A stretch of 64,000 nt of DNA from Patescibacteria group bacterium. Its GTDB lineage: Bacteria > Patescibacteriota > Patescibacteriia > UBA2196. Of this stretch, positions 36,781 through 58,326 are shown in pieces. A program made the translations under genes and the position numbers. The DNA lies in contig JAQTPI010000002.1 in the NCBI GenBank assembly GCA_028748975.1, forward strand, positions 51,213-115,212, given 5' to 3'. Under the pieces are notes generated by a model. It searched no databases, was not told the origin of the DNA, and was given only the letters and a program-made list of their open reading frames with translations. How positions within the stretch are numbered: the stretch's first letter is position 1; every line of letters starts with the position of its first letter.

Positions 36781-37063
36781 CAGAAAATATTAAAATATGA
36801 TGGCCGGCCGTTTTGGAGCGATGAGATAATAAAAGTAATAAGTAATAAGTAACTAGTAATAAGGGAGTTGTTAGAGACCCCTCTCCTTACCAAGGAGAGG
36901 GCAGGGTGAGGTTTATACACTTCGCCGATAGGCGCATATAATTTATTATTCGTACATTCGTCCCGAGTACTCGGGATTTGTAATTCGTAGTAGGCCGCTT
37001 TAGCGGCCAAAAAAAATCCGGCCACCAGAGATACTGGCAGCCGGTAAGGAGGAGGAAATTTGT

Positions 37064-43130: not shown

Positions 43131-44003
43131 ATGCCAACTCAAACAAAGCAAACAACCCCAGTCGAAGCCTATAACACCCAAGCCAAACCGACGTGGTGCC
43201 CCGGCTGCGGCGATTTTGGAATTTGGATGGGAATCAAAAGCGCCCTGAGCGAATTAAACCTGCCACCGCACATGGTCGCAATCGTCTATGGCATCGGCTG
43301 CGCCGGCAACATGGCCTCCACCCTGAAATGCTACGGCTTTCATTCTCTTCACGGCCGAACCCTGCCCGTCGCCACCGGCATCAAACTCGCCAATCCCAAG
43401 CTCGCGGTTTTGACCGTGGCCGGCGACGGCGATTTCTATGGCGAAGGCGGCAATCATTTTCTCCACGCCGCGCGCTATAATTCTGACATCAATGCCATTG
43501 TTTGTGACAACCGCCTGTTTTCTCTGACCACGGGCCAGGCCTCGCCAACTTCCGCGGTCGGCATGATTTCCAAAACCACTCCTTTTGGCGAAATCAAAGA
43601 ACCCCTAAATCCCGTGGCTTTAGCAATTATTGCCGGCGCGACTTTTGTGGCGCGCGTGCCGGCTTTTGATCCGGCGCTCCTTAAAGAGACGATCAAACAA
43701 GCCATCAATCACAAAGGTTTTGCTTTGATTAATGTTTTGCAGCAATGCGTCACTTTCAACAAAACCAACACTGTGGAATGGTATAAAGAAAGAATTTATA
43801 ATCTGAATGATGCCAAGCATGATATTAATAATAAAGAGCAAGCACTCGCCAAAGCTTTGGAAACCGAAAAAATTCCAGTCGGAGTTTTCTATAAAGTTGA
43901 AAGGCCAAGTTATGAAGAAAAGTTAGACCTGTCTCCCGCCGCCTCCGCCAAAGACGAAAAAATAGTTTTCCCTTGGGCAGAGTTAAAGAAAGAATTTATT
44001 TAG
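43131..44003 (+). CDS. 2-oxoacid:ferredoxin oxidoreductase beta subunit (TPP-binding)
   Basis: CPGCGDFG Fe-S / TPP region. GDGD TPP-binding motif. Confidence 0.85.
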   Translation: MPTQTKQTTPVEAYNTQAKPTWCPGCGDFGIWMGIKSALSELNLPPHMVAIVYGIGCAGNMASTLKCYGFHSLHGRTLPVATGIKLANPKLAVLTVAGDGDFYGEGGNHFLHAARYNSDINAIVCDNRLFSLTTGQASPTSAVGMISKTTPFGEIKEPLNPVALAIIAGATFVARVPAFDPALLKETIKQAINHKGFALINVLQQCVTFNKTNTVEWYKERIYNLNDAKHDINNKEQALAKALETEKIPVGVFYKVERPSYEEKLDLSPAASAKDEKIVFPWAELKKEFI

Positions 44004-44311
44004 TTAGTCATCCCCTCCTTTTCAAGGAGGGGCAAGGGGTGGTTATTTATTTCGCCGTTAGGCGCGTCGTTTCCCCCCTCTCCTTAACAAGGAGAGGTCG
44101 GGGTGAGGTAGATCGCCAATAGGCGCATCTAATTATGTCATCCCCGCCTTAGGCGGAAATTTGGAAAAACTCGCCCAACCAGCGGGTTTTGTTTTTAGAA
44201 GTATGATTTTTTATGGAACCATTCGCGCGAATGGGTAAATGGATTTTTTTCTAAAATAAAAAAAATCCCCGTCCCAAGTTTTTCCAGGGGCGGGGAAGAT
44301 CATTTTTGTGA

Positions 44312-44713
44312 CTATTTGTGGATGCAAACCATCCGAGTATTGGCAGAAAAATTATAATGAAGAAAGGAGAAGATTAAATTCCATCTCCAGTCATTAGTGC
44401 AAATCCATTTTAAAGTCGGGATGAGCAGATTTCCGTTCGGAGCGCGCCACACCGTGCCAGGAAAGATCAGTTCAAAATCTTGCCATTCTTGGGGAATTTC
44501 TTCCCTTCGTTTTTGTCCAATGCTAAAAAGTTGATTAATGAGTTGGTTAAGAAGCAGGCGTTCGGCATGAAGCTGGCCCGCGGAGTTCATTTTCTTGGCG
44601 TATTTCAGCAAGGTTGGTCCAAAAATATTGCCATTGCCAATCATTCCATCACAGCGGGAAAGATCATCCAACTCAAGAGAAATTTCGCCTTTTTCCAAAG
44701 CGACATTTTCCAA
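44312..44713 (-). CDS. hypothetical protein
   Basis: Minus-strand terminator at 44250-44290. May be the C-terminal part of a gene disrupted at 44714-44772. Confidence 0.35.
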   Translation of the reverse strand: MENVALEKGEISLELDDLSRCDGMIGNGNIFGPTLLKYAKKMNSAGQLHAERLLLNQLINQLFSIGQKRREEIPQEWQDFELIFPGTVWRAPNGNLLIPTLKWICTNDWRWNLIFSFLHYNFSANTRMVCIHK

Positions 44714-44772
44714 GAGTTCATAGCCTTCTTTGCCTTCTTGGCGCCGGTCATAGATGAAGTCGGTTTGGGGCT

Positions 44773-45183
44773 TTAGAACCAGGAGGGATAATTCTTGGGG
44801 GTGTTTGTGATTTTCTCTTCCTTTTTATTTTCCTCAACGTCAATCAGATGAAGTTCGGTGCCAGGAATGATAATGGTCGCCATCCGGCTTTCAAGCGCAT
44901 GGGTTTCACAACGGGAGACAGATAGGGCGATTGAACAAGAATCAGAATCGCTGGCGAAAGGTTTATCGAAACCTGTAATTTTTACTTTTTCTCCATGGAG
45001 TCCACTGTCTTTATTGATGATTAAAAACCGTTTATCCTTTACCCCTTCCACCGCGTTTTTTATCAGTATTTCTCTGTCACTGCGGAATTTGTTTTCAAGG
45101 TTATTCATTTCTTCCCGAAAAGCTCTTTTTAGCGCATAAAGTTGTTGGTTCAGCTCTTCTGACCAACAAAGTGTTTTTGCCAT
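44773..45183 (-). CDS. hypothetical protein
   Basis: ggagg SD on the minus strand at 45190. Tandem 25-nt repeats immediately upstream. Confidence 0.4.
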   Translation of the reverse strand: MAKTLCWSEELNQQLYALKRAFREEMNNLENKFRSDREILIKNAVEGVKDKRFLIINKDSGLHGEKVKITGFDKPFASDSDSCSIALSVSRCETHALESRMATIIIPGTELHLIDVEENKKEEKITNTPKNYPSWF

Positions 45184-45196
45184 GTTTGCCTCCTTG

Positions 45197-45268
45197 CCCC
45201 GAGCTTGTTTGGGGTGGTTTACCCCGAGCTTGTTCGAGGTGGTTTACCCCGAGCTTGTCGAGGGGTTT
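45197..45268. repeat. 3 x 25-nt tandem repeat (ccccgagcttgt..ggtggttta)
   Basis: Direct tandem copies immediately upstream of the minus-strand ORF start. Confidence 0.65.
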
Positions 45269-45442
45269 AATTGTGAGCGAACTGGGTATTGTTTTATCTT
45301 ATACCCAATCCCGAGGGTTTGTCAAATGGTTTTTCTTTTTGGCTTTCATGGACTTATTCGCGCGAATGGGTAAATGGATTTTTTTCTAAAATAAAAAAAT
45401 CCCCGCGAATTTTTGTTCGCGGGGTGTTTGTTTCAGATGTGT

Positions 45443-45874
45443 TTAGTTGGCAGGCACTTTGACCGGCACCGCTTTCCAGGGACTGATGCGATAGTATGCC
45501 TTCATGGTGAAATATTTTACCAGGCGTTCATGTTTGTGCAAAAACCAGTGGGCGCCTTTTTCTTCCAGGTGGTAGCCTTCGGTTTCGGGGCATATCGGCG
45601 TTTTCAGAAGCGCCAGCCCGGCTGTTTTTTCTGGATTCGGGTCATTTTGGCCCTGTATTTTTGTACCGACCCATTTGGAAAGGTTTTCCCACTGTTCCAA
45701 AACAGTGTACGTTTCATAGCCAGGCAGGGCGATGTGTTTGGCCACACAAAGCGTTTTTTGACCGTTTATCACTTGGTAGCCGTGCCGTTGGTAGGTGTTG
45801 AGGGCGATATAGACACCGATTGAGAGCAGGAACAGATAACCCAGAATAAACAACACTGTTGGTTTTGTCAGCAT
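45443..45874 (-). CDS. membrane-anchored hypothetical protein
   Basis: N-terminal transmembrane helix. Terminator at 45395-45425 shares a 50-nt module with 44190-44260. Confidence 0.4.
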   Translation of the reverse strand: MLTKPTVLFILGYLFLLSIGVYIALNTYQRHGYQVINGQKTLCVAKHIALPGYETYTVLEQWENLSKWVGTKIQGQNDPNPEKTAGLALLKTPICPETEGYHLEEKGAHWFLHKHERLVKYFTMKAYYRISPWKAVPVKVPAN

Positions 45875-46017
45875 TTTTGCCTCCTTTGGCTTTTTGTTGT
45901 TGGTTTGGGTTGATGGAATGTACTAAAGGCATTGTAGCATGTTTAAAAAATCCTGTCAAGTGGTTTTTGTGTCATCTCGGTTTTAGGTCGACTTGCCGAT
46001 AGGCAAGAACCATAAGT

Positions 46018-46074
46018 TTATCCGCCGGAGTATCAAAAGACTTTTAGAGAACGCAGGCGGAGAAACTTAATTTT
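46018..46074 (+). repeat. Element C copy
   Basis: tttatccgccggagt...gcaggcggagaaacttaatttt. Confidence 0.55.
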
Positions 46075-46268
46075 GACTTTCAGGGCTAAAAGTGGGAGAA
46101 TTAAAGTATAAAAACAAGAGGGCGCTCGCTCCGCTCGTCGCGTTTCGTCCCCTCTCCTTAACAAGGAGAGGAAGGGTGAGGTAGATCGCCGATAGGCGAC
46201 ATCTAATTTCGTTCGCGCCCACCTAATTCTTACTTCCGTACGTAAAGTATTACGTACTCAAAAAATAT

Positions 46269-46445
46269 ATGTCAACGCAAAAATTAATTAATAAAAACAT
46301 CCGCAAACTGACCAAAGTCGGCCAGCACAGTTTTGCTGTTACCCTGCCGATGGAAATGGTTAAAAAATTGAATTGGCGCGAAAAACAAAAAGTAGTGGTT
46401 ACTTTAAAAAGCAAAACTATAACTATTAAAGATTGGAAGAAATAA
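46269..46445 (+). CDS. AbrB/MazE/SpoVT-family small DNA-binding protein (58 aa)
   Basis: KVGQHSFAVTLPMEMVKKL swapped-hairpin motif. Below the ORF-track cutoff. Confidence 0.45.
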   Translation: MSTQKLINKNIRKLTKVGQHSFAVTLPMEMVKKLNWREKQKVVVTLKSKTITIKDWKK

Positions 46446-46523
46446 ATTAAAAAAATTTGTGTAAAAAATAGCCGTCATTCCGAGCGCAATAATGGAATCA
46501 TTTATAGTGTTTTAATTTTAAAT

Positions 46524-47978
46524 ATGGATAAACAAAAACAAAAAAACTTAGGTGCTTTTTATACTCCCGTCAGCGCCGTAGAGTATATGGTTAGTAAACT
46601 GACTGGTTTTTGTGATAAAAGTAAATTATTAGAACCAAGCGGTGGTGATGGAGCTTTTGTTTCTGTAATTTTAAAGAGGGGATTACTAAAATCGGAACAA
46701 ATTACGGTTTGGGATATCAATCCGGAGGTTAAAAATTATATTGAAAATTTGGGCATAAAAAATATAGTAATAAAAGACACGCTTTTATCAACCAATTTTG
46801 CCAGTAATTCTCTCTTTAGAGGAGAATTATTTTCTCATATTATTGGCAACCCTCCGTATTTAAACAAACAAAGTGCTTATATAAAAAAGAATAAACACAG
46901 ATTAGGAGATCTTTTTAAAGAAATCGGTGCTAATGATACCTATGCCATGTTTTTATATTTAGGTTGTAAATTACTAGAAGAAAATGGCGAACTCTGTTTT
47001 ATTATCAGCGACACCTATTTGACTTTAGGAATTCATAAAAAGTTAAGAAAATTTTTATTAAAAAATTATACCATTAATGAAATCACGCTTTGTTCCAAAA
47101 AATTATTTAGAGATAGTGGTGCTTTGGTTAATACAAGTATAATTTATTTAACCAACAAAAAATCATCCGATAGCCACAAAATAATTTTTAATGATTGTCG
47201 AGAAAACGAAGCCGATAACTATATTGGTAAAAAATTTAAAACTATACAAAAAAATATTTTATCATACCCCGATTATGTTTTTGATTTTAATGGTGGGGCA
47301 AAATTACTTGGTAAAATAAACGAACTTAAAAAAATGGTAAGTCTTTTAGATGGTGGTCTAGGAATGCACACGACAGATAATAATGAATTTTTAGCCATTG
47401 TTGATTATGGTGGAAAAAAATATGCTAGCAATAATGGTATAAACAAGATTGTTTCTGCAACAGATATTGATGGGAAAAAATGGAAATTTTATCATAAAAA
47501 GGGTGGTAATAATAAATATTATCTACCGACCGAATATGCCATTCGTTGGGACAAAGAAGCGGTTTCTCACTACAAAATGCCTAAAAATTACGACATTGAT
47601 ATTAAAAGAATAGGATTTGTTGTTTCCGGCATTTGTTCAAACCTAACAGCCAGACTATCAACGCCCGGTGCTCTTTGGGAAAGCAATAAGGCTATGTGTT
47701 TTTTCCCAAAAGACCCTCAAAAATATCCGCCAGAACTTTTTGTCGGCGTTTTAAATAGTGATATTTATAACAAAATGATAAAGTTATTAAATCATACCAA
47801 TTCTTTACAAATTAGAGATATTAAAAAGTTACCCTGGCCTGATTTTACCAATGAAGATGTAAACAAAATAATAACAATCTCTAAAAATATAATTGCCAAA
47901 ATTAAAGAAAACATGGATTATAGTTTCAACGGAGAACAGGAAAAAATTAATCAAATTGTTAATAATTATTTTTTATAG
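46524..47978 (+). CDS. gamma-class N6-adenine DNA methyltransferase (TaqI/Eco57I-like)
   Basis: GAFYTP (motif X). EPSGGDGAF (motif I). NPPY (motif IV). C-terminal TRD-sized extension. Confidence 0.75.
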   Translation: MDKQKQKNLGAFYTPVSAVEYMVSKLTGFCDKSKLLEPSGGDGAFVSVILKRGLLKSEQITVWDINPEVKNYIENLGIKNIVIKDTLLSTNFASNSLFRGELFSHIIGNPPYLNKQSAYIKKNKHRLGDLFKEIGANDTYAMFLYLGCKLLEENGELCFIISDTYLTLGIHKKLRKFLLKNYTINEITLCSKKLFRDSGALVNTSIIYLTNKKSSDSHKIIFNDCRENEADNYIGKKFKTIQKNILSYPDYVFDFNGGAKLLGKINELKKMVSLLDGGLGMHTTDNNEFLAIVDYGGKKYASNNGINKIVSATDIDGKKWKFYHKKGGNNKYYLPTEYAIRWDKEAVSHYKMPKNYDIDIKRIGFVVSGICSNLTARLSTPGALWESNKAMCFFPKDPQKYPPELFVGVLNSDIYNKMIKLLNHTNSLQIRDIKKLPWPDFTNEDVNKIITISKNIIAKIKENMDYSFNGEQEKINQIVNNYFL

Positions 47979-47982
47979 AATT

Positions 47983-48864
47983 ATGAAAAACAGAAAAGTA
48001 AAATCAAATAGAGCCCAAGCCGATTATTTTGAGTTATTAGTTTGTCAATATATTTGCCACTTGTATAATGTCACATTTTCTTACAGTCAAGATTTGGCCA
48101 AGCTATCAAACAAGATCCTTGTTTTACCGGATGGCAAAGCGAGATTAAAACTACAAAATGATAATTTTATAAAAATACAGCCCAAAATCAAAGAGATTTT
48201 AGATTTTGAAATAGGTCAAAAAGGAAAAGTAATAAGCGTGGTTTGGGTTGGTAGAAATCTTTTAATTGAAACGACCTCCGATGTTGACGCCGAACACATT
48301 AATAAGCAAAAAACAAGGTTTTCCATTAAATCAATAGCCAGCACCGGCACTGGTACATTGAAAAATTTGGGTGCAAGACAAATCAAAAAATTTTTAGGAA
48401 TTGATTTTTCACGACAATATAACGAAATGTGGCGAAAACTAAGAGATCATTTAAAGGATTTTGATTTATCACAATCAAGACTGAAAAAGAAAGTGCAAAA
48501 AAATAAAAAATTATTGAAGTGGGCGACAGAAAACGGAAAAAAATATCAAACGAAATTAAATGAATTATGTCTTAATTCTTTTAATAAACTTTCTTTAAAG
48601 GAAAAGATTAATTTTCTTAATTATATTACTGACTGCAATGACGAGGATTTATATGTTATTATTGTAAATTCTGTCGACGTTATAATTTATAAACCGGTAG
48701 ATAAAAAATTAAAAATTATAAAGAATATAAAGGCCAAAAAAAATAATATGGCAGGTGCTGGTTACACAATTTATATTGACGATAAACCAACTTATCGCGT
48801 CCAAACCAACAACACAAATGGAATCGGCATCAGCGCTTATTGTCAAAGAATTTTCTGGATTTAA
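47983..48864 (+). CDS. hypothetical protein, candidate cognate restriction endonuclease
   Basis: Starts 5 nt after the MTase stop. No recognised motif. Assignment by position only. Confidence 0.3.
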   Translation: MKNRKVKSNRAQADYFELLVCQYICHLYNVTFSYSQDLAKLSNKILVLPDGKARLKLQNDNFIKIQPKIKEILDFEIGQKGKVISVVWVGRNLLIETTSDVDAEHINKQKTRFSIKSIASTGTGTLKNLGARQIKKFLGIDFSRQYNEMWRKLRDHLKDFDLSQSRLKKKVQKNKKLLKWATENGKKYQTKLNELCLNSFNKLSLKEKINFLNYITDCNDEDLYVIIVNSVDVIIYKPVDKKLKIIKNIKAKKNNMAGAGYTIYIDDKPTYRVQTNNTNGIGISAYCQRIFWI

Positions 48865-48961
48865 TTGAAAAGACGAATAAAGAAATTGACGAAAAAGTCT
48901 ATGGCTTTTACGGCCTGACGGAGGAGGAAATAAAAATTATAGAAATTAATAAATAGATAAT

Positions 48962-49828
48962 ATGAACAGTGAAGAATTTAAAAATCTCTATTCAATGCAA
49001 AGTTTGGATGAATCAATTACGCCGTTTACAAACAATGTTGGCTTTTCATTAATTCGCAAATATCCTGAAAATACAACCTATTTTAAAGACGGAAGAATGA
49101 TGTTTATTAAAGTTGCCATACTTGATGGAGGATTTTTTTACGGAGTGGATATGACTAAACCCGAAAAAAGAGGAGGAACAACCGATTATGTTATTGTTGA
49201 CGGAGAAGAATATAAGAAAAAAATTACAAATTTTTTTTCAAATGATAACGAATTTATATTTGATAATACGACTCAAAAAATAATTTATCAGCCGACAAAC
49301 AAAAGTTTTACGATGAACAAGTTTGTAGAAATTTTAGTAGCAAACCATCTTTCAGACAGACTATTCTTGAAGCGTATCTGGAACGAACTTGCTGATAGAA
49401 TTTTAAAATTTTTATTTTGGCTGTCAGATGCCCATTATGAACGAGCTCAGGTGATGATTGATAAATACGATTATGATAGGGGTGAAATTTTACCCCCAAA
49501 AGATGAAAAGAAAAATATTGAACCATTTTTTAAATATTTTTATATTTCAAAAAATATTTTGTTTTCAATTTTATTAATAACCTTTCCATCCGCCTTTTTT
49601 CTCGGTATTTATTGGGTACGCGGAGATTTTTCATTATCAAACCCAACTTTAGTTTTACTATTTTTTTTAATTTTATTTACATGCGAGAAATTGTCTATCT
49701 GGTTAGATAAAAAAATAAAAAAATTCCTTATACCACCAAAAGATCTCTTTACCGAGAAAAAAATAAACTTTATAGAAAAACTACACAATTATCAGTATCG
49801 AAACAATTTTCAGCTTAAAATAAACTAA
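48962..49828 (+). CDS. hypothetical protein with two C-terminal transmembrane helices
   Basis: Soluble N-terminal domain and hydrophobic C-terminus. Confidence 0.4.
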   Translation: MNSEEFKNLYSMQSLDESITPFTNNVGFSLIRKYPENTTYFKDGRMMFIKVAILDGGFFYGVDMTKPEKRGGTTDYVIVDGEEYKKKITNFFSNDNEFIFDNTTQKIIYQPTNKSFTMNKFVEILVANHLSDRLFLKRIWNELADRILKFLFWLSDAHYERAQVMIDKYDYDRGEILPPKDEKKNIEPFFKYFYISKNILFSILLITFPSAFFLGIYWVRGDFSLSNPTLVLLFFLILFTCEKLSIWLDKKIKKFLIPPKDLFTEKKINFIEKLHNYQYRNNFQLKIN

Positions 49829-49890
49829 TTTATTTTAAAATTTTATTGGATGCTAAAGTTTTCAAAAAATAAAAATTTAAACAAGAAATT

Positions 49891-50559
49891 ATGAACGAAA
49901 AAATATATTATCATTTTTTATCTTCAAAAAATGCAATTGATGATCTTGAGCAAAAAAGAATAAAAATTAGTTTAATAGATGAATTGAACGATCCATTTGA
50001 ATTATTGCCATATCTAAGATATAAAGAAGCTAAAAAAAGAAAAACCTATCACAACATTCGTAAAATAGTTTCAAAAAAATATGGTCTCCTGTGTTTTTCA
50101 AAAAAATGGGAGGAACCGCTTTTATGGGGGCACTATGCTGATAAACATCGGGGAATAGCAATAGGTTTTGAAATTTTAAAAGATAAAATATTGAGAGTAA
50201 AATATAATACTGTACCAAAAAGAATAGAATTTGAACTGACAAAAAATCAAGAAAAAAATATAAAATTATTTCTTGATTTGGCTAAAACAAAATATAAAGT
50301 ATGGTCATATGAAGAGGAATACAGAATATTAGTAGAACTTAATAATCGTAATGATGGTCATTATTTCATTCAGTTTGGAGATAGACTAAAAGTAAAAGAA
50401 ATAGTTTTGGGCTGTAATTTTGATAAAAAAAAGTACAAGAAGATAAAAAAATTAGCAAATCGATTACACGCCAAAGTTATACCAACTAGACAAGGCTGGG
50501 AAGATTACAAAATACGCCAATGTGGAACGAAAACTAAAGAATTTCAAAATATAAAATAA
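49891..50559 (+). CDS. DUF2971-like protein
   Basis: YHFLS...LNDPFE motif recalled as characteristic of DUF2971. Confidence 0.45.
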   Translation: MNEKIYYHFLSSKNAIDDLEQKRIKISLIDELNDPFELLPYLRYKEAKKRKTYHNIRKIVSKKYGLLCFSKKWEEPLLWGHYADKHRGIAIGFEILKDKILRVKYNTVPKRIEFELTKNQEKNIKLFLDLAKTKYKVWSYEEEYRILVELNNRNDGHYFIQFGDRLKVKEIVLGCNFDKKKYKKIKKLANRLHAKVIPTRQGWEDYKIRQCGTKTKEFQNIK

Positions 50560-50757
50560 TTTCCTCCGCCGCGCCGCGGAAAAAAACGGAGCAGAAAAAC
50601 GGAGCAGGGGATTGTCAAATTTAAAAATCAAAACCCCAAACCCTAATCCTTGGTTAATTTAGCTATAGCTAATTTAACCAAGGATTGAAAAACAGTAAAA
50701 TTAATAATGTTTGATTAATTCTGCTATAGCAAATTTAATCAAAGATTGAAAAAATAA
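50560..50757. repeat. Intergenic module R1 with 36-bp near-perfect palindrome (50648-50683) and second palindrome (50710-50744)
   Basis: tttcctccgccgcgccgcgg leader. ccttggttaatttagctatagctaatttaaccaagg. tttgattaattctgctatagcaaatttaatcaaag. Confidence 0.7.
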
Positions 50758-50923
50758 GCGGGGAGCAGACCTTTGTCAAAACTGGTTGCCCCGCTTTTTG
50801 TTTTGGGAGCTTATTTTTAAGTATAATCTAATTATAGACAAGTACAATACCCTTGTCAATTTTTTGTCAAGTCCAAATTTGACAAATTACCTTCACTGGA
50901 TGTATAATTAAGTTATCCACAAT

Positions 50924-51676
50924 ATGGCTATCCATAAAACCCAAACAAAGCTCCTGGAATTGGCCGAAAAACAAAATTTGGCTGGTTTAACTTTGCGCAA
51001 AATAGGGGAATTAATCGGCGAACCAAACAGCCCGCAAAAAATTAAACACCACCTCAACAAACTCTTTGAAAAGGGCTTATTAGTTAACAGTCTTGATAAC
51101 AAAAAAATAAGCAAAACTTCCACCGGCTTTAATTCCGAGATGAAATTAATTTCCTTGCCAATTTACGGCTCGGCCAACTGCGGCCAGGCTTTGGAATTGG
51201 CTGATGACAAAATTCAGGGCTATTTAAAAATTTCTCCCTCGATTCTAAAAGAAAAATTTAGAAAAAAAATAAAAGATTTGTATATTCTCAAAGCCATTGG
51301 CTATTCCATGAACCGCGCCAATATCAACAACAACAATATTGAACATGGTGATTATTTGATTATTGATAAAAGCCAAAATGTTCCCGAAGACAACGATTAT
51401 GTCGTTTCCGTCATCGATGGCGCGGCCAATATTAAAAAGTTTTATTCAGATAAAAAAAATCAAAGAATAATTTTAAAATCGGAATCAACTAATGATTTCG
51501 CGCCGATTTATATTCATGCCAACGATCTGGAACAATATGCGATTTGCGGCAAAGTCATTGATGTTTTAAAAGAACCCGAGGATTTTAATGACTGGCAAGA
51601 CGCCGGTTTGTCTGACACTTTGAAAGCGCTTGGTCCAATGAGCGATGAAGAACACAACTACTACATGAATTTATGA
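50924..51676 (+). CDS. LexA-like repressor (winged HTH + S24 peptidase domain)
   Basis: N-terminal LexA-type wHTH. AIGYSM (Ser nucleophile) and downstream Lys (NIKKF). Length 250 aa. Confidence 0.7.
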   Translation: MAIHKTQTKLLELAEKQNLAGLTLRKIGELIGEPNSPQKIKHHLNKLFEKGLLVNSLDNKKISKTSTGFNSEMKLISLPIYGSANCGQALELADDKIQGYLKISPSILKEKFRKKIKDLYILKAIGYSMNRANINNNNIEHGDYLIIDKSQNVPEDNDYVVSVIDGAANIKKFYSDKKNQRIILKSESTNDFAPIYIHANDLEQYAICGKVIDVLKEPEDFNDWQDAGLSDTLKALGPMSDEEHNYYMNL

Positions 51677-52011
51677 AACAAAAAGAAATTTGGATCGTTA
51701 AATATCCGGACGACGCGGCCGGCCATGAATATAAAAAAGAAAGGCCTGGTTTGATAATTGAATCTGACCAACAAATACAAAAAACCAACATCTTTACGGT
51801 GGTGCCTTTAACTTCCAATTTAAGCAACGTAACGGCCGACGATATTTTAATAAAAAAAGACCAGGAAAATAATCTTTTTGCCAATTCAGTTTTAAAAACA
51901 CACCACATCCAATCTTTTGATCGTTCTCGCTTTATCAAAGGAATTGGTAAAATTAACGAAAACACGTTGGAAAAAGTAAAAACATACCTCAAAAAACATT
52001 TCGATTTATAA
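51673..52011 (+). CDS. MazF/PemK-family endoribonuclease toxin
   Basis: KERPGLIIESD ... NIFTVVPLTSN ... IQSFDRSRF PemK signature. ATGA stop/start overlap with the upstream gene. Confidence 0.75.
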   Translation: MKQKEIWIVKYPDDAAGHEYKKERPGLIIESDQQIQKTNIFTVVPLTSNLSNVTADDILIKKDQENNLFANSVLKTHHIQSFDRSRFIKGIGKINENTLEKVKTYLKKHFDL

Positions 52012-52098
52012 CCCTATTGCTTTTCTAAGTTGACTAACCATCATTTTTTTTATTCCCGGTTTAGTGCTAAAATTAAACCATCATAACCACCACAAAAA

Positions 52099-52285
52099 TT
52101 TCCTCCGCCGCGCCGCGGAAAAAAACGGAGCAGAAAAAACAGAGCAGGGGATTAAAAAAATTAAAATAATTAAATCCCCAAATCCTTGGTTAATTTAGCT
52201 ATAGCTAATTTAACCAAGGATTGAAAAACAGTAAAATTAATAATGTTTGATTAAATTTGCTATAGCAGAATTAATCAAACATTAA
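52099..52285. repeat. Intergenic module R2 (palindromes at 52184-52219 and 52244-52280)
   Basis: Same leader and palindromes as R1. Confidence 0.7.
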
Positions 52286-52345
52286 AAATAACATAAAAAA
52301 ATCATATTCTCTAATTCGCGCGAATAGGCGAATAGTTAAAAAAAC

Positions 52346-52684
52346 ATGCAAAAATATCAAAAAATATTTTGGGCGATTATTATTCTTATAGCCGTGACCG
52401 CACCAATAATTGTTTTGGCACTCCAGCCACCAGGCGAAAGAGTGGCCGGAGTAACCATTTTACCCCAAGCCAAACACTCCTTTGCCTATATTTTTTCTAC
52501 CTATAAGATACATTTCTTCTTTTTAGTGATATTAGCTATTTTATTAATAACTCCCCTTGATTTTGTCAAAAGAGAAAAAGTTATTAAAATAATTTTTTTA
52601 AGCATCTTTCTAATTCTTCTTGTGCTGACCGGTAAGACTTTGTATACCGATATGACCATGCCCACTATTATAATTTATCAATAA
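52346..52684 (+). CDS. small polytopic membrane protein
   Basis: Three hydrophobic helices. Confidence 0.4.
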   Translation: MQKYQKIFWAIIILIAVTAPIIVLALQPPGERVAGVTILPQAKHSFAYIFSTYKIHFFFLVILAILLITPLDFVKREKVIKIIFLSIFLILLVLTGKTLYTDMTMPTIIIYQ

Positions 52685-52687
52685 GTA

Positions 52688-52812
52688 TTTCCTCCGCTGC
52701 GGCGCGGCGCAAAAAAACGAAAAAAAAACGGAGCAGGGGACTAAAAAAATTAAAATAATCCAAAACCCTAATCCTTGGTTAATTTAGCTATAGCTAAATT
52801 AACCAAGGATTT
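52688..52812. repeat. Intergenic module R3 (perfect 36-bp palindrome 52773-52808)
   Basis: ccttggttaatttagctatagctaaattaaccaagg. Confidence 0.7.
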
Positions 52813-52821
52813 AAAAAATAT

Positions 52822-53694
52822 ATGAAAAAAACCATTCTCTATTCTGTTTTGGCTCTGGTCATAATCGTTTTAATTATCGGGGCTATTCGCTTTTTAACGC
52901 CGGAAGACACCTGGCTTTGCCAAAAAGGCGAGTGGGTGAAACATGGCAATCCCTCCGCGGCGGCGCCCACCACCGGTTGCGGCGAAGCAAAAGCTTGCAC
53001 CACGGAAGCAAAAGTTTGTCCGGATGGTTCGGCTGTGGGACGAACCGGCCCCAATTGCGAATTTTCGCCTTGTCCCGGGGAAAAATCAGTGACTTTTTTC
53101 TGCGATAACAATAGAAAAATTCAGGCCAAATTCTATTTGCCGCAGGACACCTATGTTGATTTGGTTTTAAGCGACGGCCGCAGTTTACAATTGCCGCACG
53201 CCATTTCGGCAAGCGGCGCCCGCTATGCCAATGCTGACGAAAGTCTGGTTTTTTGGAACAAAGGCGACACTGCTTTTCTGACCGAAAATGCCACTACCAC
53301 CTTTGCCAATTGCGTGCTTTACACCGACAATAACACCGGTCTGGCCAACCCCGCCTCGGTCAATTGCACGGCCAAGGGCGGCACACTCAAAATTCAAAAG
53401 AACAGCAAGGGCGGCGAATACGGAGTTTGTTTTTTTGAAGATAATCGCCAATGCGAAGAGTGGGCGCTCTTGCGCGGACAATGTCCGGTGGGCGGATTAA
53501 AAGTCACTGGCTATCAAACCGACGCGCAGATCTATTGCGCTATTACCGGTGGCACTGTTGAAGGCATGGACTCGCCGGTTCCGATGTGCAAAAGAATTGA
53601 CGGAACATATTGCAACGCCGAATCTAATTTTAATGGCGACTGCCCAGACCCCAATGACCCCAACCCCAGCGCCGGCAATGTGGAAGCGCCATAA
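52822..53694 (+). CDS. secreted MliC-like + DUF333-like cysteine-rich protein
   Basis: Signal anchor. FFCDNN...YANADESLVF (MliC-like). NPASVNC..GG..C.FEDN.QCEEWA (DUF333-like), present twice. Confidence 0.5.
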   Translation: MKKTILYSVLALVIIVLIIGAIRFLTPEDTWLCQKGEWVKHGNPSAAAPTTGCGEAKACTTEAKVCPDGSAVGRTGPNCEFSPCPGEKSVTFFCDNNRKIQAKFYLPQDTYVDLVLSDGRSLQLPHAISASGARYANADESLVFWNKGDTAFLTENATTTFANCVLYTDNNTGLANPASVNCTAKGGTLKIQKNSKGGEYGVCFFEDNRQCEEWALLRGQCPVGGLKVTGYQTDAQIYCAITGGTVEGMDSPVPMCKRIDGTYCNAESNFNGDCPDPNDPNPSAGNVEAP

Positions 53695-53845
53695 ATAAAA
53701 TTTTAAAAAACTTTTAAAACGGGAAATTAAAAATAAAATCTGCGTTTTTTAGAATCCGCCCTGGTTTTAAGCCGGAGCGGATTTTTTGTTTTGACTTTGT
53801 CGCCTAAAAGCGGGATAATAAAAGTATAAATTAAAAAATAAACCT

Positions 53846-55081
53846 ATGAAAAAACTCCTAATTATTATTGGCATTGTGGTTGTGGTGATTGGCGCGGCCG
53901 GATTTTTTGTCCTGCCTAAAATAGCCGGTCAAAGACAGGGCGGTCCAGGGCAGGGCGGATCTCCTTGTGCTGTCGCGGCAGGCGAATGGGTGCCCCAAAG
54001 AGGCGAATGCCCGGGTACGGGCGTGGAAATGAGGACGAAATGCAACGAATTCTGCGAAAAACATCCGGATTGCTGCGGTGAAAGAAATGAAAACGCCGGT
54101 GGAAGTTTTGGCGGACGGGAAGAAATTTTGCCCCTGCCAGCTGATAAAGTTATTTCAAGATTGAAAAGAAATTATCCGGCAACAATTAAAGCGCTGAATG
54201 AGGGCCCAAATATTTATACCCGCGAAGGTCCCGCGGAAATTTTCAGTGAGGAAAAGCTGGAAAAAATAAAAGCGATCGGCTTTAATACCATTCAGGTTTT
54301 ATTAATTGGCAAAAAAGAAAATGGCCAACTCGTTTTCAACGAAGTCAATAACGCCGTCCTACTGAATGACATCGTGGCCATAAAGAAACAGGGTTTGGCG
54401 GTCTGGGTGGCGCTGGACATTGCCGGCGTGCCGGCGAACATGGGCGTGGGCAATAGTTTGGGAGATTATGAAATTTTTAAGGCGTCTTTTTTGGAATTTA
54501 CAAAAAAATCCGCTGAATTGATGGAGCAATACAAGGTGGAATATTTTACTCCCAACAATGAACCGGACAAGCCCTTTAAAGAGCAAAAAAATTGGAGCGC
54601 AACCGAGGTTAATAATAATTTGGCTGATTTTCTTCCGGCTACCAATGCCGCGGCGCGTGAAAAATTCAGCGGCAAACTGATTAATAAAATTACCCAGGCG
54701 GAGCATCACGCCCAAAAAGTGATTGATGCTTCTTTTCAAAACGTGGACATTGCCGGAGTTGATGTCGGCCCAGCCATGGATGAACATACAAACCTGACCA
54801 GGTACAAAGAAGAATTTGAATCTTACCAATATTATGCCACTCTGGCGGAAAAAGCCGGCGTGCCCTGGATGAACGCGGAATACTGGCAGGGAGATTTTGA
54901 TTCGGGTTACAGTAATTTTGCCAAAAACAATGAATTGGAATATTCAAAAATTTCTTTTGATGCCTATTTGAAAGTCGTGCCCAAGGGAAAGGGTTATGTT
55001 TGGAATGACATCAGGACATTTTCTCTGCCGCAAGGCGAAGAGACCAAAAATGCTTTAACTGAATTTTTTAACAAAATATAA
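53846..55081 (+). CDS. secreted glycoside hydrolase-like protein (GH5-like TIM barrel)
   Basis: Signal anchor. YFTPNNEPD acid/base-like motif. Confidence 0.4.
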   Translation: MKKLLIIIGIVVVVIGAAGFFVLPKIAGQRQGGPGQGGSPCAVAAGEWVPQRGECPGTGVEMRTKCNEFCEKHPDCCGERNENAGGSFGGREEILPLPADKVISRLKRNYPATIKALNEGPNIYTREGPAEIFSEEKLEKIKAIGFNTIQVLLIGKKENGQLVFNEVNNAVLLNDIVAIKKQGLAVWVALDIAGVPANMGVGNSLGDYEIFKASFLEFTKKSAELMEQYKVEYFTPNNEPDKPFKEQKNWSATEVNNNLADFLPATNAAAREKFSGKLINKITQAEHHAQKVIDASFQNVDIAGVDVGPAMDEHTNLTRYKEEFESYQYYATLAEKAGVPWMNAEYWQGDFDSGYSNFAKNNELEYSKISFDAYLKVVPKGKGYVWNDIRTFSLPQGEETKNALTEFFNKI

Positions 55082-55084
55082 ATT

Positions 55085-55561
55085 ATGTACGCGTTATTAA
55101 TAATTGGGGCAGTACTTATGATTTTGGGAATTATCGGCAGTGTCATGCCCGCCATGCCCGGGCCGATTTTGGGTTTCTTAGGAATTATTTTTTTGCATTA
55201 TGGTAAACCAGACTCCGTTTCCATTTCTTCCTTAATAGTTTTCGGTTCCATCGTGGTGTTTTTACTTTTAATTGATTATTTTGTTCCTATCTTCGGCGCG
55301 AAATTTTCCGGCGCATCCAAAAGGGGGCTGTTCGGAGCATTTTTGGGAAGTTTAATCGGTCTCGTCTACTTTCCGCCACTGGGAATTTTTGTCGGCGCAT
55401 TCCTGGGCGCGGTGGCGGGAGAATTAATCGGCGGTAAAAAGGGGCCGCAGGCACTCAAAGCCGGAGTTGGAACTTTGGTTGGCAGCGCGTCCATGATAAT
55501 TTTGCAGACGATTTTTTCCCTGTTTTTGGCAGTTTATTTTTTTATTAAATTATTCAGTTAA
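55085..55561 (+). CDS. DUF456-like small membrane protein
   Basis: [11 protein letters not shown] motif. Four helices. Confidence 0.4.
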
Positions 55562-55572
55562 AAATTAGCTAT

Positions 55573-56502
55573 ATGGCAAAAATATTAATTACCGGCGGGG
55601 CGGGATTTATCGGCGCGCACCTCTGCCAAAAATTATTAACTCAAGGCAACGAAATTATCTGCCTTGATAATTTTTTTACCGGCAATAAAAATAATGTCGC
55701 CGAACTATTAAGTAATCCAAATTTCAAATTAGTGGAGCATGATGTGGAAGAATCATATAATTTTGAAGTTGACCAAATTTATAATTTGGCTTGTCCGGCC
55801 GCGCCCATCTGGTACCAAAAGGATCCGGTCAAGACAGTCCGGACAAATATTATGGGCGCCATTAACGCTTTGGAGCTGGCGAAAAAAATCGGCTGCCGGG
55901 TTTTACAGGCTTCCACTTCCGAGGTTTATGGCGACCCTTTGGTTCATCCCCAAAATGAAAAATATTGGGGCAATGTCAATCCGATTGGTCGGCGCGCCTG
56001 CTATGATGAAGGCAAAAGATGCGCCGAAACATTATTTTTTGATTATTATCGCGAATATGGAATTGATATAAAAGTAGTCAGAATTTTTAATACTTATGGC
56101 CCGAAAATGGCGGTGGAAGACGGCCGGGTCATTTCCAGTTTTATTGTGCAGGCGCTGCAAAATAAAGATTTATTGGTTTTTGGCGAAGGCAAGCAAACCA
56201 GAAGTCCTTGCTTTGTGGCAGATACGGTTGACGGCCTTGTGGCCATGATGGCGAGCGAAAATTTTGTCGGCCCGGTAAATATTGGCAAGGATGATGAATA
56301 TACGATTAAAGAACTGGCGGAAAAAATAATTCAATTAACTGACAGTAAATCAAAAATTGTTTTTAAACCCCTACCGGAAGATGATCCAATCAGGCGTCGG
56401 CCGGATTTGAATTTAGCTAAAGAAAAATTAAATTGGTCGCCACAAATCAGTTTGGAGGAAGGATTGTTAAAAACAACCGAGTATTTTAAAAAGGTTTTAT
56501 AA
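55573..56502 (+). CDS. UDP-glucuronate decarboxylase (UDP-xylose synthase)
   Basis: TGGAGFIG. Yxxx[11 protein letters not shown] typical of UXS. Confidence 0.85.
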
Positions 56503-56505
56503 ATT

Positions 56506-58326
56506 ATGCCAAAATGGATTTTGAAAGAAAAATACACTTCCGAATTTGCGGAAAAACTGCCGGGATACTCCCCGGTGGTTTGGCAATTGTTATATGACCG
56601 CGGATTAGATAATCAGGAAAAAATCGACGAATTTTTCAATCCTGACTATTTGAGTGATATTCACGACCCATTCCTGTTTAAAGACGCTAAAAAGGCCTCT
56701 AAATGCGTTTTAGAGGCCATTGAAAAGCAGGAAAGTATCCTTGTTTTCGGCGATTATGACGCTGACGGCGTTACCGCCAGTGTTGTTATGGAAAAAACTT
56801 TGCGCAAGCTGGGCGCCCAAAATGTTGATGTTTTTATCCCGCACCGCGAATTGGACGGCTATGGCCTAAATTTGGAAAAAGCAGAAGAGTTGGCCAAAGA
56901 AAAAAAATATAATTTAATCATTACAGTTGACTGTGGTATTACCAATTTTGAGGCGATAGAAAAATTAAATTCCGCGGGGATTGATACGATTGTCACCGAC
57001 CATCATTTGGCCACCGAAAAACTGCCACCGGCTTTTGCCATTCTTAACCCGTCAGTGGAAAGTGAAATTTATCCTTTTAAAAAATTGGCTGGCGTGGGCG
57101 TGGCATTCAAATTGGCGCAAGCGCTGTTTCGGGAGAAACAAGAAAAACAAGAAAAAAGTGAAAAACAAGAAAAGGGGAAAAAAGAAAAAAAGGAATTACA
57201 TAGTTACGAAGCTTTTGAAAAATGGCTTTTGGATTTGGTCACGCTCGGCACTATCGGTGATGTGTCACCGATTCTGGGCGAGAACCGCACCCTGGTAACC
57301 TATGGCCTGAAAGTTTTAAACAAAACTCCGCGCAAAGGTTTGCAGGAATTAATCCGCGTTTCCAGTTTGTCCGATGGCGAAGAATTAAAAAATCTTCCGC
57401 TCGGCGCGGATTTGTATGATTTAAATATCAGAAATATTTCTTTTCAACTTGTTCCGCGCATCAATGCTGCCGGCCGAATTGACCATGCTTCCTTGGCGTT
57501 GGAATTATTATCTACCGAAGATGAAATTGAAGCTATTGCCTTGGCGCGCGACATTCAGGAAAAAAATTTACAGCGCCAAAAAATTGTGGAAGTTGCCATG
57601 AAAGAAGCCAAAGAAATTTTGGGCGAAGTTACGGACGATAAAAAAATTCTCATTGCGGCGAGCGCCAATTGGCCAGTGGGCATTGTCGGTTTGATTTCCG
57701 GCAAATTAATGGATGAATTTGCCCGGCCGGTAATTTTGATGAATCAGGACGGTGAAAATTATGCCGGTTCCGCGCGCAGTATTGCTGAATTTAATATTAC
57801 CGAGGCTTTAGGCGAATGCGGCGAATTTTTAGAAAGATTTGGCGGCCATGCCAAAGCTGCCGGATTTGGCATCAAAGGCAAAAAGAATTATAATAAATTC
57901 ATTGCCAAAATGGAGGCGTTGGCAGAGGAAAAATTAAAAGACGTGGAACTTACGCCGACGATTGAAATTGACACGGAAATTAAATTTTCAGATTTGAATT
58001 GGGAACTTTGGGATGAAATTAAAAAATTTGAACCCTTTGCCGAAGCCAACCCCTTGCCATTATTTTTGGTAAAAAATTTGAAAGTGGAAAGCGTAGAAGA
58101 AATGGGCAAAAACGGCGGGCACCTGCGTTTTTATTTTTCTGACGGTGCTCTGGCGCATAAAGCCATTTCTTTTGGCACGGCCGTTGAGTGGAAAGATAAA
58201 ATTAAAAGCGGCGACATAATTGACGCTGTGATGGAATTCGGAATAAATGAGTGGAATGGCAACAGGGAATTGCAGTTTAAACTGGTGGACTTTAAGCCGG
58301 AGGGTTGTCATCCCGAGAAGGCCTGA
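56506..58326 (+). CDS. recJ: single-stranded-DNA-specific exonuclease RecJ
   Basis: DHH motifs (DYDADG, DHH). DHHA1 GGGH-like. EKQ repeat insert at 57134-57193. Last 6 codons and stop lie inside a MITE. Confidence 0.85.
   Translation: MPKWILKEKYTSEFAEKLPGYSPVVWQLLYDRGLDNQEKIDEFFNPDYLSDIHDPFLFKDAKKASKCVLEAIEKQESILVFGDYDADGVTASVVMEKTLRKLGAQNVDVFIPHRELDGYGLNLEKAEELAKEKKYNLIITVDCGITNFEAIEKLNSAGIDTIVTDHHLATEKLPPAFAILNPSVESEIYPFKKLAGVGVAFKLAQALFREKQEKQEKSEKQEKGKKEKKELHSYEAFEKWLLDLVTLGTIGDVSPILGENRTLVTYGLKVLNKTPRKGLQELIRVSSLSDGEELKNLPLGADLYDLNIRNISFQLVPRINAAGRIDHASLALELLSTEDEIEAIALARDIQEKNLQRQKIVEVAMKEAKEILGEVTDDKKILIAASANWPVGIVGLISGKLMDEFARPVILMNQDGENYAGSARSIAEFNITEALGECGEFLERFGGHAKAAGFGIKGKKNYNKFIAKMEALAEEKLKDVELTPTIEIDTEIKFSDLNWELWDEIKKFEPFAEANPLPLFLVKNLKVESVEEMGKNGGHLRFYFSDGALAHKAISFGTAVEWKDKIKSGDIIDAVMEFGINEWNGNRELQFKLVDFKPEGCHPEKA

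Follow-up and report, generated by a model that had tools for sequence, protein, structure and literature searches.

Does the 293-amino-acid (aa) open reading frame (ORF) that follows a predicted adenine methyltransferase (MTase) gene in a member of the Patescibacteria encode a restriction endonuclease (REase), and do the genes around it form a single defense block? This question was raised by a 64,000-nucleotide (nt) stretch of contig JAQTPI010000002.1 (assembly GCA_028748975.1, positions 51,213 to 115,212 of the forward strand). We refer to this whole stretch as the window, and coordinates without a locus name are those of the window. An initial annotation, made from the sequence alone, had described a putative defense island at 46018-50559 that consisted of five ORFs: an AbrB-like regulator gene, the MTase gene, the 293-aa ORF as a candidate endonuclease gene, a gene for a protein with transmembrane (TM) helices, and a gene for a DUF2971-like protein. 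We found all five ORFs at the positions given there, on the plus strand. The results presented below make it likely that the two ORFs at 46524-48864 are a self-contained, horizontally mobile Type II restriction-modification (R-M) cassette, which is located in a mosaic defense island of a candidate phyla radiation (CPR) genome. Based on sequence comparisons and a structural model, the 293-aa ORF very probably encodes a restriction endonuclease.

In the mechanism that we propose, the 484-aa MTase, which is gamma class, would methylate adenine at N6 within a short target sequence of the host genome. The 293-aa protein would be a PD-(D/E)xK nuclease of the MspI/HinP1I-like type, and it would use E17, D100, and K116 to cut the same target when the target is unmethylated, as it would be in incoming phage DNA, for example. 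By analogy with its structural relatives, the nuclease probably acts as a monomer. The leading candidate for the target is TCGA, in which our confidence is about even or slightly lower.

The initial annotation had assigned the upstream gene to the TaqI/Eco57I class of MTases based on FxTP, FxGxG-like, and NPPY motifs, and the family searches agreed. The protein matched the Pfam families Eco57I (PF07669, E-value of 6e-19) and N6_Mtase (PF02384, 1.5e-14), with both matches above the gathering thresholds, and the motifs were located as FYTP at residue 12, EPSGGDGAF at residue 37, and NPPY at residue 109. In a PADLOC search, which the initial annotation had proposed as a check, the MTase matched MTase_II (PDLC03347) over its full length with an E-value of 8.4e-45. 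The best PDB sequence matches were M.BseCI (5.9e-10), BrxX/PglX, and M.TaqI (1.8e-4).

The gene for the 293-aa protein, which is identical to PHT40_01270, begins 4 nt after the MTase stop codon. The AlphaFold2 (AF2) model of the protein was confident, and its best structural matches were two Type II REases of the MspI/HinP1I-like kind (1sa3 and 1ynm). In the model, a helix at residues 10-27 was followed by strands at residues 83-88, 101-105, 110-117, and 125-129, and a long helical insertion (approximately residues 131-216) was located between two beta-sheets. An alignment with 38 relatives that were 20-57% identical contained only nine invariant columns: E17, W88, D100, K116, T125, N128, N279, R289, and F291. 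The PD-(D/E)xK core has an alpha-beta-beta-beta-alpha-beta arrangement, with an acidic residue that starts strand 2, a (D/E/x)xK motif on strand 3, and often a Glu on helix 1. At the level of prediction, the 293-aa protein displayed each of these features. Specifically, E17 was on the helix at residues 10-27, S99-D100 was at the start of the strand at residues 101-105, and S114-I-K116 was on the strand at residues 110-117. The resulting candidate motif is S99-D100-X13-S114-I-K116, with Ser114 at the middle position of the (D/E/x)xK motif. E17, D100, and K116 are among the most conserved positions in the family and are the predicted catalytic triad, and the protein is presumably catalytically active. 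HhaI, HinP1I, and MspI are related monomeric PD-(D/E)xK enzymes, and the site in HhaI is of the SD-X11-EAK type (PMC7026639). In the initial annotation, the proposal that the 293-aa ORF encodes an endonuclease was based on gene position, and a non-nuclease fold was named as a finding that would count against it. The proposal now has the fold, the conserved residues, and the MTase linkage described below behind it; the best structural matches were two Type II REases and the E...D...xK triad was invariant.

Several observations weighed against the assignment of the 293-aa protein as a restriction enzyme. The Foldseek match was not significant, and none of our sequence searches detected similarity between the 293-aa family and any known nuclease. 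Searches of Pfam, NCBIfam, PADLOC, and PHROGs with the single 293-aa sequence yielded nothing useful, and searches of Pfam with all 55 family members at E-values up to 10 yielded no REase family. Relatives with N-terminal extensions had no Pfam matches, and neither phmmer nor profiles built from the 55 close relatives or the 38 distant relatives found anything relevant among PDB sequences. In addition, the classical motif has its second acidic residue replaced by a Ser, and it is from secondary structure that we infer the clustering of the triad in space and its overlay on the catalytic residues of HinP1I and MspI. Finally, in 24/37 pairs, conservation was higher for the nuclease than for the MTase (e.g., 83% versus 62%), which is the reverse of the usual pattern in R-M systems. 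The absence of a detectable nuclease family and a significant Foldseek match, the unusually strong conservation for a restriction enzyme, and the Ser in the motif would all suit a different explanation, namely, that the 293-aa protein is some other MTase-associated specificity or regulatory partner, or a repair or modification-dependent nuclease, and that the MTase is solitary. We consider this explanation quite improbable. The top structural matches were two restriction enzymes, E, D, and K were invariant at the expected secondary-structure positions, and the gene neighborhoods of the family also argued against it.

In all five contexts that we examined in detail, including the window, an MTase gene was located immediately upstream of the nuclease gene. 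In the four contexts outside the window, the upstream gene was an Eco57I/N6_Mtase gene of 480-490 aa, and the flanks consisted of unrelated housekeeping genes. A metagenome scan yielded 80 further nuclease loci (L099-L178), and the 64 loci with at least 600 nt of upstream DNA were counted as informative. An MTase gene or a remnant of one was found directly upstream and on the same strand in 64/64 of these loci. The partners were window-type gamma MTases in 45 loci, LexA-fused gamma MTases in 17 loci, and beta-class N6_N4 MTases in 2 loci. Hence, the MTase partner was obligatory and had been swapped between unrelated lineages, which is the expected behavior of a restriction gene. Adjacency to MTases of three unrelated lineages is not the behavior of a cofactor of one MTase. 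In two loci, the MTase was truncated (118 aa in L109:2504-4843, where extra ORFs were inserted, and likewise truncated in L113), and in these same loci the nuclease homologues lacked N-terminal residues, including E17. As for the orphan MTase that the initial annotation had named as a contrary outcome, a gene of the nuclease family was always accompanied by an MTase gene or remnant. A distant homologue of the MTase was found on a Miltoncostaea plasmid, and the gene downstream of it was unrelated.

Comparisons of the loci also indicated how far the cassette extends. DNA homology between cassettes stopped at the MTase ATG and at the nuclease stop codon, and the flanks differed in every context. 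Because the homology ends at these two points, we take the mobile unit to be the two ORFs at 46524-48864. None of the genes for AbrB, the 288-aa TM protein (TM288), DUF2971, the S24 peptidase protein, or MazF in the window accompanied the cassette in the other loci examined. In a Harrisonbacteria-type lineage, the cassette followed a tRNA-Gln gene at a distance of about 80 nt (L006:6406-6477 and L099:2406-2477); tRNA genes are typical insertion hotspots.

The 97-nt spacer between the nuclease stop codon and the TM288 start codon carried a trace of what may have preceded the cassette. Frame 1 of 48840-48956 read ...LIEKTNKEIDEKVYGFYGLTEEEIKIIEINK, and the spacer encoded the last approximately 30 residues (...IDEKVYGFYGLTEEEIKIIEINK) of a Type IIG enzyme. 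The relic matched the C termini of the PADLOC REase_MTase_IIG models PDLC03609 (2.9e-6, profile positions 1035-1062 of 1066) and PDLC03612 (1.4e-4, profile positions 1220-1244 of 1247); a search of the PDB with the relic peptide yielded no match. Because the relic matches the extreme C terminus of Type IIG enzymes, we conclude that the cassette took the place of an earlier Type IIG gene, most of which was lost. In the proposed scenario, the cassette would have landed at the site of this older enzyme, and the last approximately 30 codons would have survived downstream.

To identify a candidate target, we looked for site avoidance. Of the 4-mer palindromes in the window, TCGA was the one most strongly under-represented, with an observed-to-expected (O/E) ratio of 0.46. 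We then compared the flanks of 26 non-redundant cassette loci, with the cassette itself removed, to 69 control loci. The median TCGA O/E was 0.52 in the cassette flanks versus 0.94 in the controls (Mann-Whitney p of 4e-9), an O/E below 0.7 was observed in 22/26 cassette loci versus 10/69 controls, and the depletion of TCGA was the strongest among the 16 palindromic 4-mers. In the same flank test, NTCGAN 6-mers showed no depletion beyond that of TCGA. This includes ATCGAT (BseCI/ClaI-like), which we rejected as the target. TCGA is also a plausible target because it contains the adenine that an N6-methyladenine (m6A) enzyme needs. The nearest structural relatives of the nuclease cut 4-bp palindromes with a central CG, C^CGG and G^CGC (PMC7026639).

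The signal was confounded by phylogeny, and this counted against TCGA. The cassette hosts were mostly Parcubacteria, ACGT and TGCA were also lower in the cassette set, and the TCGA O/E was 0.41-0.95 in Parcubacterial TM288 loci with no cassette in view. A first small comparison with few loci was uninformative, as loci with the cassette and loci lacking it were depleted to the same extent. We give close to an even chance to the possibility that the locus is a Type II R-M cassette with a different target, such as an asymmetric or longer site. In favor of this possibility, the scarcity of TCGA could be a trait of the host lineage, the nuclease is found with MTases of three different lineages, and residues 101-466 of the MTase, which include the target-recognition region, align with PglX and Type IIG models. 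PglX and Type IIG enzymes recognize asymmetric 6-7 bp sites. The points on the side of TCGA are those given above: it was the most specifically depleted palindrome in the cassette flanks, it has the central CG found in the 4-bp targets of the nearest structural relatives, and it provides the adenine. Overall, TCGA as a TaqI-like target of the cassette stands at roughly even odds or just short of them. As a separate observation, the CPR control loci were bimodal for TCGA: most had an O/E of approximately 1.0, and L024, L027, L039, and L068 were extreme (values of 0.10, 0.13, 0.40, and 0.53). This hints that strongly TCGA-depleted control genomes may carry other TCGA-specific systems.

The nuclease family comprised 213 clusters at 90% identity and 86 clusters at 50% identity among 1.84 billion representatives, and the named relatives were nearly all from Patescibacteria. 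Six family members (P0032, P0048, P0078, P0085, P0090, and P0120) carried labels from the Joint Genome Institute that read 'succinate dehydrogenase flavin-adding protein (antitoxin of CptAB toxin-antitoxin module)'. This SdhE/CptB-like antitoxin label looks like a mis-annotation.

In the 17 related loci with LexA-fused partners, the MTase was a single ORF of approximately 605 aa that contained LexA_DNA_bind, Peptidase_S24, and N6_Mtase/Eco57I domains. These loci include L147:2159-3976, L116, L121, L122, L150, L159, L162, and L166. The LexA-MTase ORF was continuous in eight loci, and the LexA parts were 55-100% identical. A conserved LLG(T/V)I(A/T)AG sequence was found at the expected place of LexA self-cleavage, and GDSM was found in 4/8 of those loci. 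These sequence features, all in loci outside the window, suggest that LexA-MTase fusions can link the R-M family to the SOS response. Our literature search found no paper on LexA-MTase fusions, which is not proof of novelty.

The features that we located in and around the cassette are listed in Table 1.

Table 1. Features of the cassette and the surrounding low-GC stretch, in window coordinates
Feature	Position	Strand	Description or basis
Element C	46018..46215	+	Left intergenic element; hairpin, promoter-like 42-mer, copy of a dispersed hairpin repeat
AbrB/MazE/SpoVT-fold DNA-binding protein, 58 aa	46269..46445	+	Pfam MazE_antitoxin/AbrB PF04014, 2e-7
M gene, gamma-class N6-adenine DNA MTase, 484 aa	46524..47978	+	Pfam, PADLOC, motifs
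R gene, predicted Type II REase, 293 aa	47983..48864	+	Fold, conserved triad, linkage
Type IIG relic	48861..48956	+	3' end of an older gene
TM288, 288 aa	48962..49828	+	Cytoplasmic alpha/beta domain (residues 1-170), two C-terminal TM helices
DUF2971 protein, 222 aa	49891..50559	+	Single-gene defense candidate PDC-S31
Repeat R1a	50560-50752	+	Palindromes of ~42 nt at 50645-50686 and 50706-50747
Intrinsic-terminator-like hairpin after R1a	50761-50805	+	Fold
LexA-like promoter/operator	50834..50908	+	Perfect TTGACA-18-TATAAT at 50879-50908
LexA-like repressor, 250 aa	50924..51676	+	Winged helix, Peptidase_S24, 35-aa C-terminal tail
PemK/MazF endoribonuclease toxin, 112 aa	51673..52011	+	Pfam PemK_toxin, 3.5e-20, full length
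Repeat R1b	52098-52288	+	94% identical to R1a over 112 nt
TM112, 112 aa	52346..52684	+	Three predicted TM helices; no family match
Repeat R1c	52687-52817	+	First palindrome only; right end of the low-GC stretch

The cassette is located in DNA of foreign composition. The GC content dropped from approximately 0.45 to 0.22-0.34 across the low-GC block, and the GC content at third codon positions (GC3) was 0.235, 0.276, 0.249, and 0.175 in the four core genes. The flanking genes had GC3 values of 0.41-0.57, a strong contrast that bears out the remark in the initial annotation that codon style differed from the surroundings. The low-GC stretch did not end at 50559, where the initial annotation had placed the right edge of the block. 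Instead, it continued at intermediate GC to approximately 52,820 through a second sub-block with GC3 values of 0.33-0.41, which contained the LexA-like S24 gene, the PemK/MazF toxin gene, and the gene for a 112-aa TM protein (TM112). In the next gene (52822-53694), GC was back up to 0.51. Conserved synteny of the block across relatives, which would have spoken against a defense island, was not what we observed. In the two nearest relatives found (L024 and L025), a porB-like gene and recJ were directly adjacent, and in the window, the corresponding genes (43131-44003 and 56506-58326, respectively) were separated by 12.5 kb (44004-56505) of mostly unannotatable or accessory genes; these relatives are distant, and their porB-like proteins share 63-65% aa identity with that of the window. 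The GC3 values and the adjacency of porB and recJ in the relatives indicate that the low-GC stretch was horizontally acquired and is of foreign origin.

The region at 46.5-52.8 kb is a mosaic defense island of independent modules, not the one defense block that had been proposed, and it is solid but fairly ordinary as defense islands go. In our model, TM288, the DUF2971 protein, the LexA-like/MazF pair, and the small membrane protein would be independent neighbors of the cassette, and the last two modules would be separated by the palindrome-rich R1 repeats. That the island acts against phages, and what each accessory gene contributes to it, are predictions.

The initial annotation had noted two C-terminal TM helices in the protein encoded downstream of the cassette, and hydrophobic helices were located at approximately residues 198-218 and 228-249 of TM288. 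Homologues of TM288 (L011, L015, L019, L022, and L023) had MvaI/BcnI R-M, HinfI R-M, an N6_N4 MTase with PADLOC REase_II, an OLD/AriA/PtuA-like ATPase, or a serine recombinase as neighbors, with serine recombinases in two contexts. TM288 is thus a defense-island-associated gene. The gene downstream of the homologues was often tightly spaced and varied between loci, and TM288 could be the conserved member of pairs in which the effector varies. A specific pairing of TM288 with DUF2971 was rejected, as the neighbors in other loci were unrelated.

The DUF2971 assignment of the next protein was substantiated. The Pfam match had an E-value of 1.2e-5 and a score of 26.9 bits, above the gathering cut-off of 22, and the protein matched the PADLOC model PDC-S31 (PDLC04991) at residues 7-209 with an E-value of 2.6e-29 and phrog_1762 with an E-value of 3.4e-37. 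Reading the sequence by eye, we noted H8, Y82, and E141-E-E143 as candidate residues. A published description places DUF2971 among the DarT/AbiGi-like ADP-ribosyltransferases (PMC12522546), and the lactococcal DUF2971 protein Aristaios is a validated single-gene antiphage abortive-infection system (PMC11381338). The DUF2971 protein in the window is predicted to be an ADP-ribosyltransferase-like abortive-infection effector.

In the second sub-block, the LexA-like protein matched Peptidase_S24 (9.6e-15), the NCBIfam lexA model (6.7e-17, below the cut-off), and the phrog_4 repressor family (4.8e-20), and its gene had a GC3 of 0.41. The LexA-like gene has a perfect sigma-70 promoter, and the pattern of TTGTCAA/TTGACAA inverted repeats that overlaps it was unique in the window; we found no operator shared between this S24 promoter and the R-M promoter. 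The MazF start codon overlapped the LexA-like stop codon by 4 nt, and the sequence arrangement indicates that the two genes are translationally coupled. The usual partner of MazF is an AbrB-fold MazE, and the LexA-like S24 protein is an unusual partner. Searches of phage and plasmid collections with the S24-MazF DNA and the MazF protein yielded no similar S24-MazF pair.

Some of these features are what one might expect if the block had been carried by a prophage or integrative element that has since degraded, with genes that maintained the element, such as R-M and MazF acting in post-segregational killing. The GC content is foreign, R-M and toxin-antitoxin modules are both capable of addiction, TM288 homologues are found next to serine recombinases in two contexts, the DUF2971 protein and the S24 repressor have PHROG matches, and prophages typically have a LexA/CI-like repressor whose strong promoter is autoregulated. 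Such an origin is compatible with the defense interpretation, and we regard it as unlikely given the following observations. The ORF list and family searches revealed no integrase, recombinase, structural, or replication gene at 44-57 kb, and the repeat analysis found no direct repeats that flank the block and are specific to it. Neither the nuclease family nor the TM288 family was found in 2.9 million viral contigs, and the nuclease was not found in the plasmid and phage collections. Moreover, the modules occur separately elsewhere, and the M and R genes move as two ORFs only. A mobile R-M cassette within a mosaic defense island remains the interpretation that we favor.

The AbrB-like gene at the left of the cassette has a different status. 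The AbrB-like regulator described in the initial annotation did prove to have the domain; its supposed link to the cassette did not hold, as the gene was not found in any other cassette locus examined. Upstream of other cassettes, we found an HTH_17 ORF, a 45-aa ORF, a LexA fusion, or nothing. The AbrB-like protein had 22 detectable homologues, and P0245 and P0250 (63-66% identity) were encoded by single genes next to enolase or tRNA synthetase genes, with no toxin or R-M gene nearby. A role as the R-M controller was therefore rejected because of this context and the lack of co-occurrence with the cassette elsewhere, and a role as the missing MazE was rejected because of the context and because the AbrB domain is not followed by a C-terminal tail. 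The GC3 of the gene (0.39) was between the host and island values, and based on its GC3 and the host-type repeat upstream, the gene is probably part of the host backbone. It may supply a promoter for the downstream cassette, because we detected no consensus promoter in the 78-nt spacer before the MTase gene. The AbrB-like start codon is preceded, at a distance of 12 nt, by a perfect 8-nt inverted repeat (GTACGTAA-4-TTACGTAC, 46238-46257), which may be an operator or a hairpin.

The repeats on both sides, which had been taken as the bounds of the island, turned out to have other roles. In Element C, the promoter-like 42-mer (46071-46112, TTGACT-17-GAGAAT) had one further copy in the window, at 53789-53830, that was 83% identical, and the two copies precede the AbrB-like gene and a 411-aa gene at 53846, the next host-like gene. 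Between the two copies lie the entire low-GC stretch and a DUF333/MliC gene. The hairpin repeat CCCCTCTCCTTAACAAGGAGAGG (46149-46198) had further copies at 36878 and 44075. The repeats in Element C are genome-wide intergenic repeats that recur outside the block, not island-specific ends. Each R1 copy was 130-190 nt long, contained one or two nearly perfect 42-nt AT-rich palindromes, and began 0-87 nt from a stop codon. There were no other R1 copies in the window. The predicted RNA fold of R1 was strong (z of -4.8), and a search of Rfam yielded no credible family match. Reading the palindromes by eye as integron attC sites was rejected, since the half-sites were GTT...AAC rather than AAC...GTT. 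R1 is a module-junction element that delimits the S24-MazF and TM112 modules in a manner resembling a cassette junction, and it is a junction and not an island edge because all three copies are located inside the low-GC stretch. In sum, a defense island with a Type II R-M core was upheld from the initial annotation, and the AbrB link, the single unit, the right boundary, and the bounding role of R1 were not.

The sequence family of the 293-aa protein is new, the kind of system to which it belongs is well known, and the novelty is accordingly modest. Restriction enzymes are notoriously hard to recognize by sequence. For a family with no Pfam, NCBIfam, PADLOC, or PDB match, defense finders will call the partner MTase an orphan in hundreds of Patescibacteria genomes, and assigning the family corrects this error. 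The nuclease is also a possible new enzyme for molecular biology, likely a 4-cutter. To our knowledge, there are almost no experimental genetics in the Patescibacteria phylum, and the locus provides a view of R-M cassette swapping at one hotspot in ultra-small CPR genomes, next to a Type IIG relic. The LexA-MTase fusions and the recurrence of TM288 next to unrelated defense systems are leads for new regulatory or defense mechanisms. A broader proposal would combine a new small, largely CPR-restricted REase family (MspI/HinP1I-like fold, m6A protection, and probably TCGA) with SOS-cleavable LexA-MTase regulators and with TM288 and LexA-like/MazF as new defense modules; as a whole, we consider this proposal rather doubtful. 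If it were true, the LexA-MTase fusions would be an R-M system with a regulator that could be cleaved in the SOS response, TM288 would be a membrane-anchored sensor or effector, and LexA-like/MazF would be a toxin released by DNA damage.

When compared with known systems, the 293-aa protein was most like MspI, HinP1I, and HhaI, which its model resembles in overall fold (1sa3 and 1ynm). However, there was no detectable sequence similarity to MspI or HinP1I in searches of Pfam and the PDB with single sequences and profiles at E-values up to 10. MspI and HinP1I lack the long helical insertion of the 293-aa protein, and the 293-aa protein has a Ser where MspI, HinP1I, and HhaI have the second acidic residue. 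The targets also differ in kind, as CCGG and GCGC contain no adenine, whereas the partner of the 293-aa protein is an N6-adenine MTase. The TaqI system shares the MTase class and motifs (FxTP and NPPY), the two-gene Type IIP layout, and the target predicted from site avoidance, TCGA. In contrast, the 293-aa nuclease has no Pfam match and thus falls outside the TaqI endonuclease family, and the likeness of the window MTase to M.TaqI is confined to the catalytic core (residues 99-181), with M.BseCI and PglX being closer. Among the Eco57I/PglX gamma MTases, to which the window MTase belongs by its two Pfam matches and its full-length PDLC03347 match, PglX itself differs: the window MTase scored 119 bits against the NCBIfam PglX cut-off of 500 bits, and it is a stand-alone 484-aa protein with no fused nuclease or BREX partners.

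Of the accessory genes, the DUF2971 gene shares with Aristaios/PDC-S31 the domain, the single-gene arrangement, and the defense context, and the reading by eye gave candidates for the H, Y, and ExE residues described for the family (PMC12522546); lactococcal Aristaios is 316 aa, versus 222 aa for the window protein. The LexA-like/MazF pair shares with MazEF a full-length PemK/MazF that is coupled to an upstream DNA-binding protein and a strong, operator-laden promoter. It differs in that the partner is a LexA-like winged-helix protein with an S24 peptidase instead of an AbrB-fold MazE, and the sole AbrB-fold gene lies at a distance of 5 kb and encodes a protein without a C-terminal toxin-binding tail.

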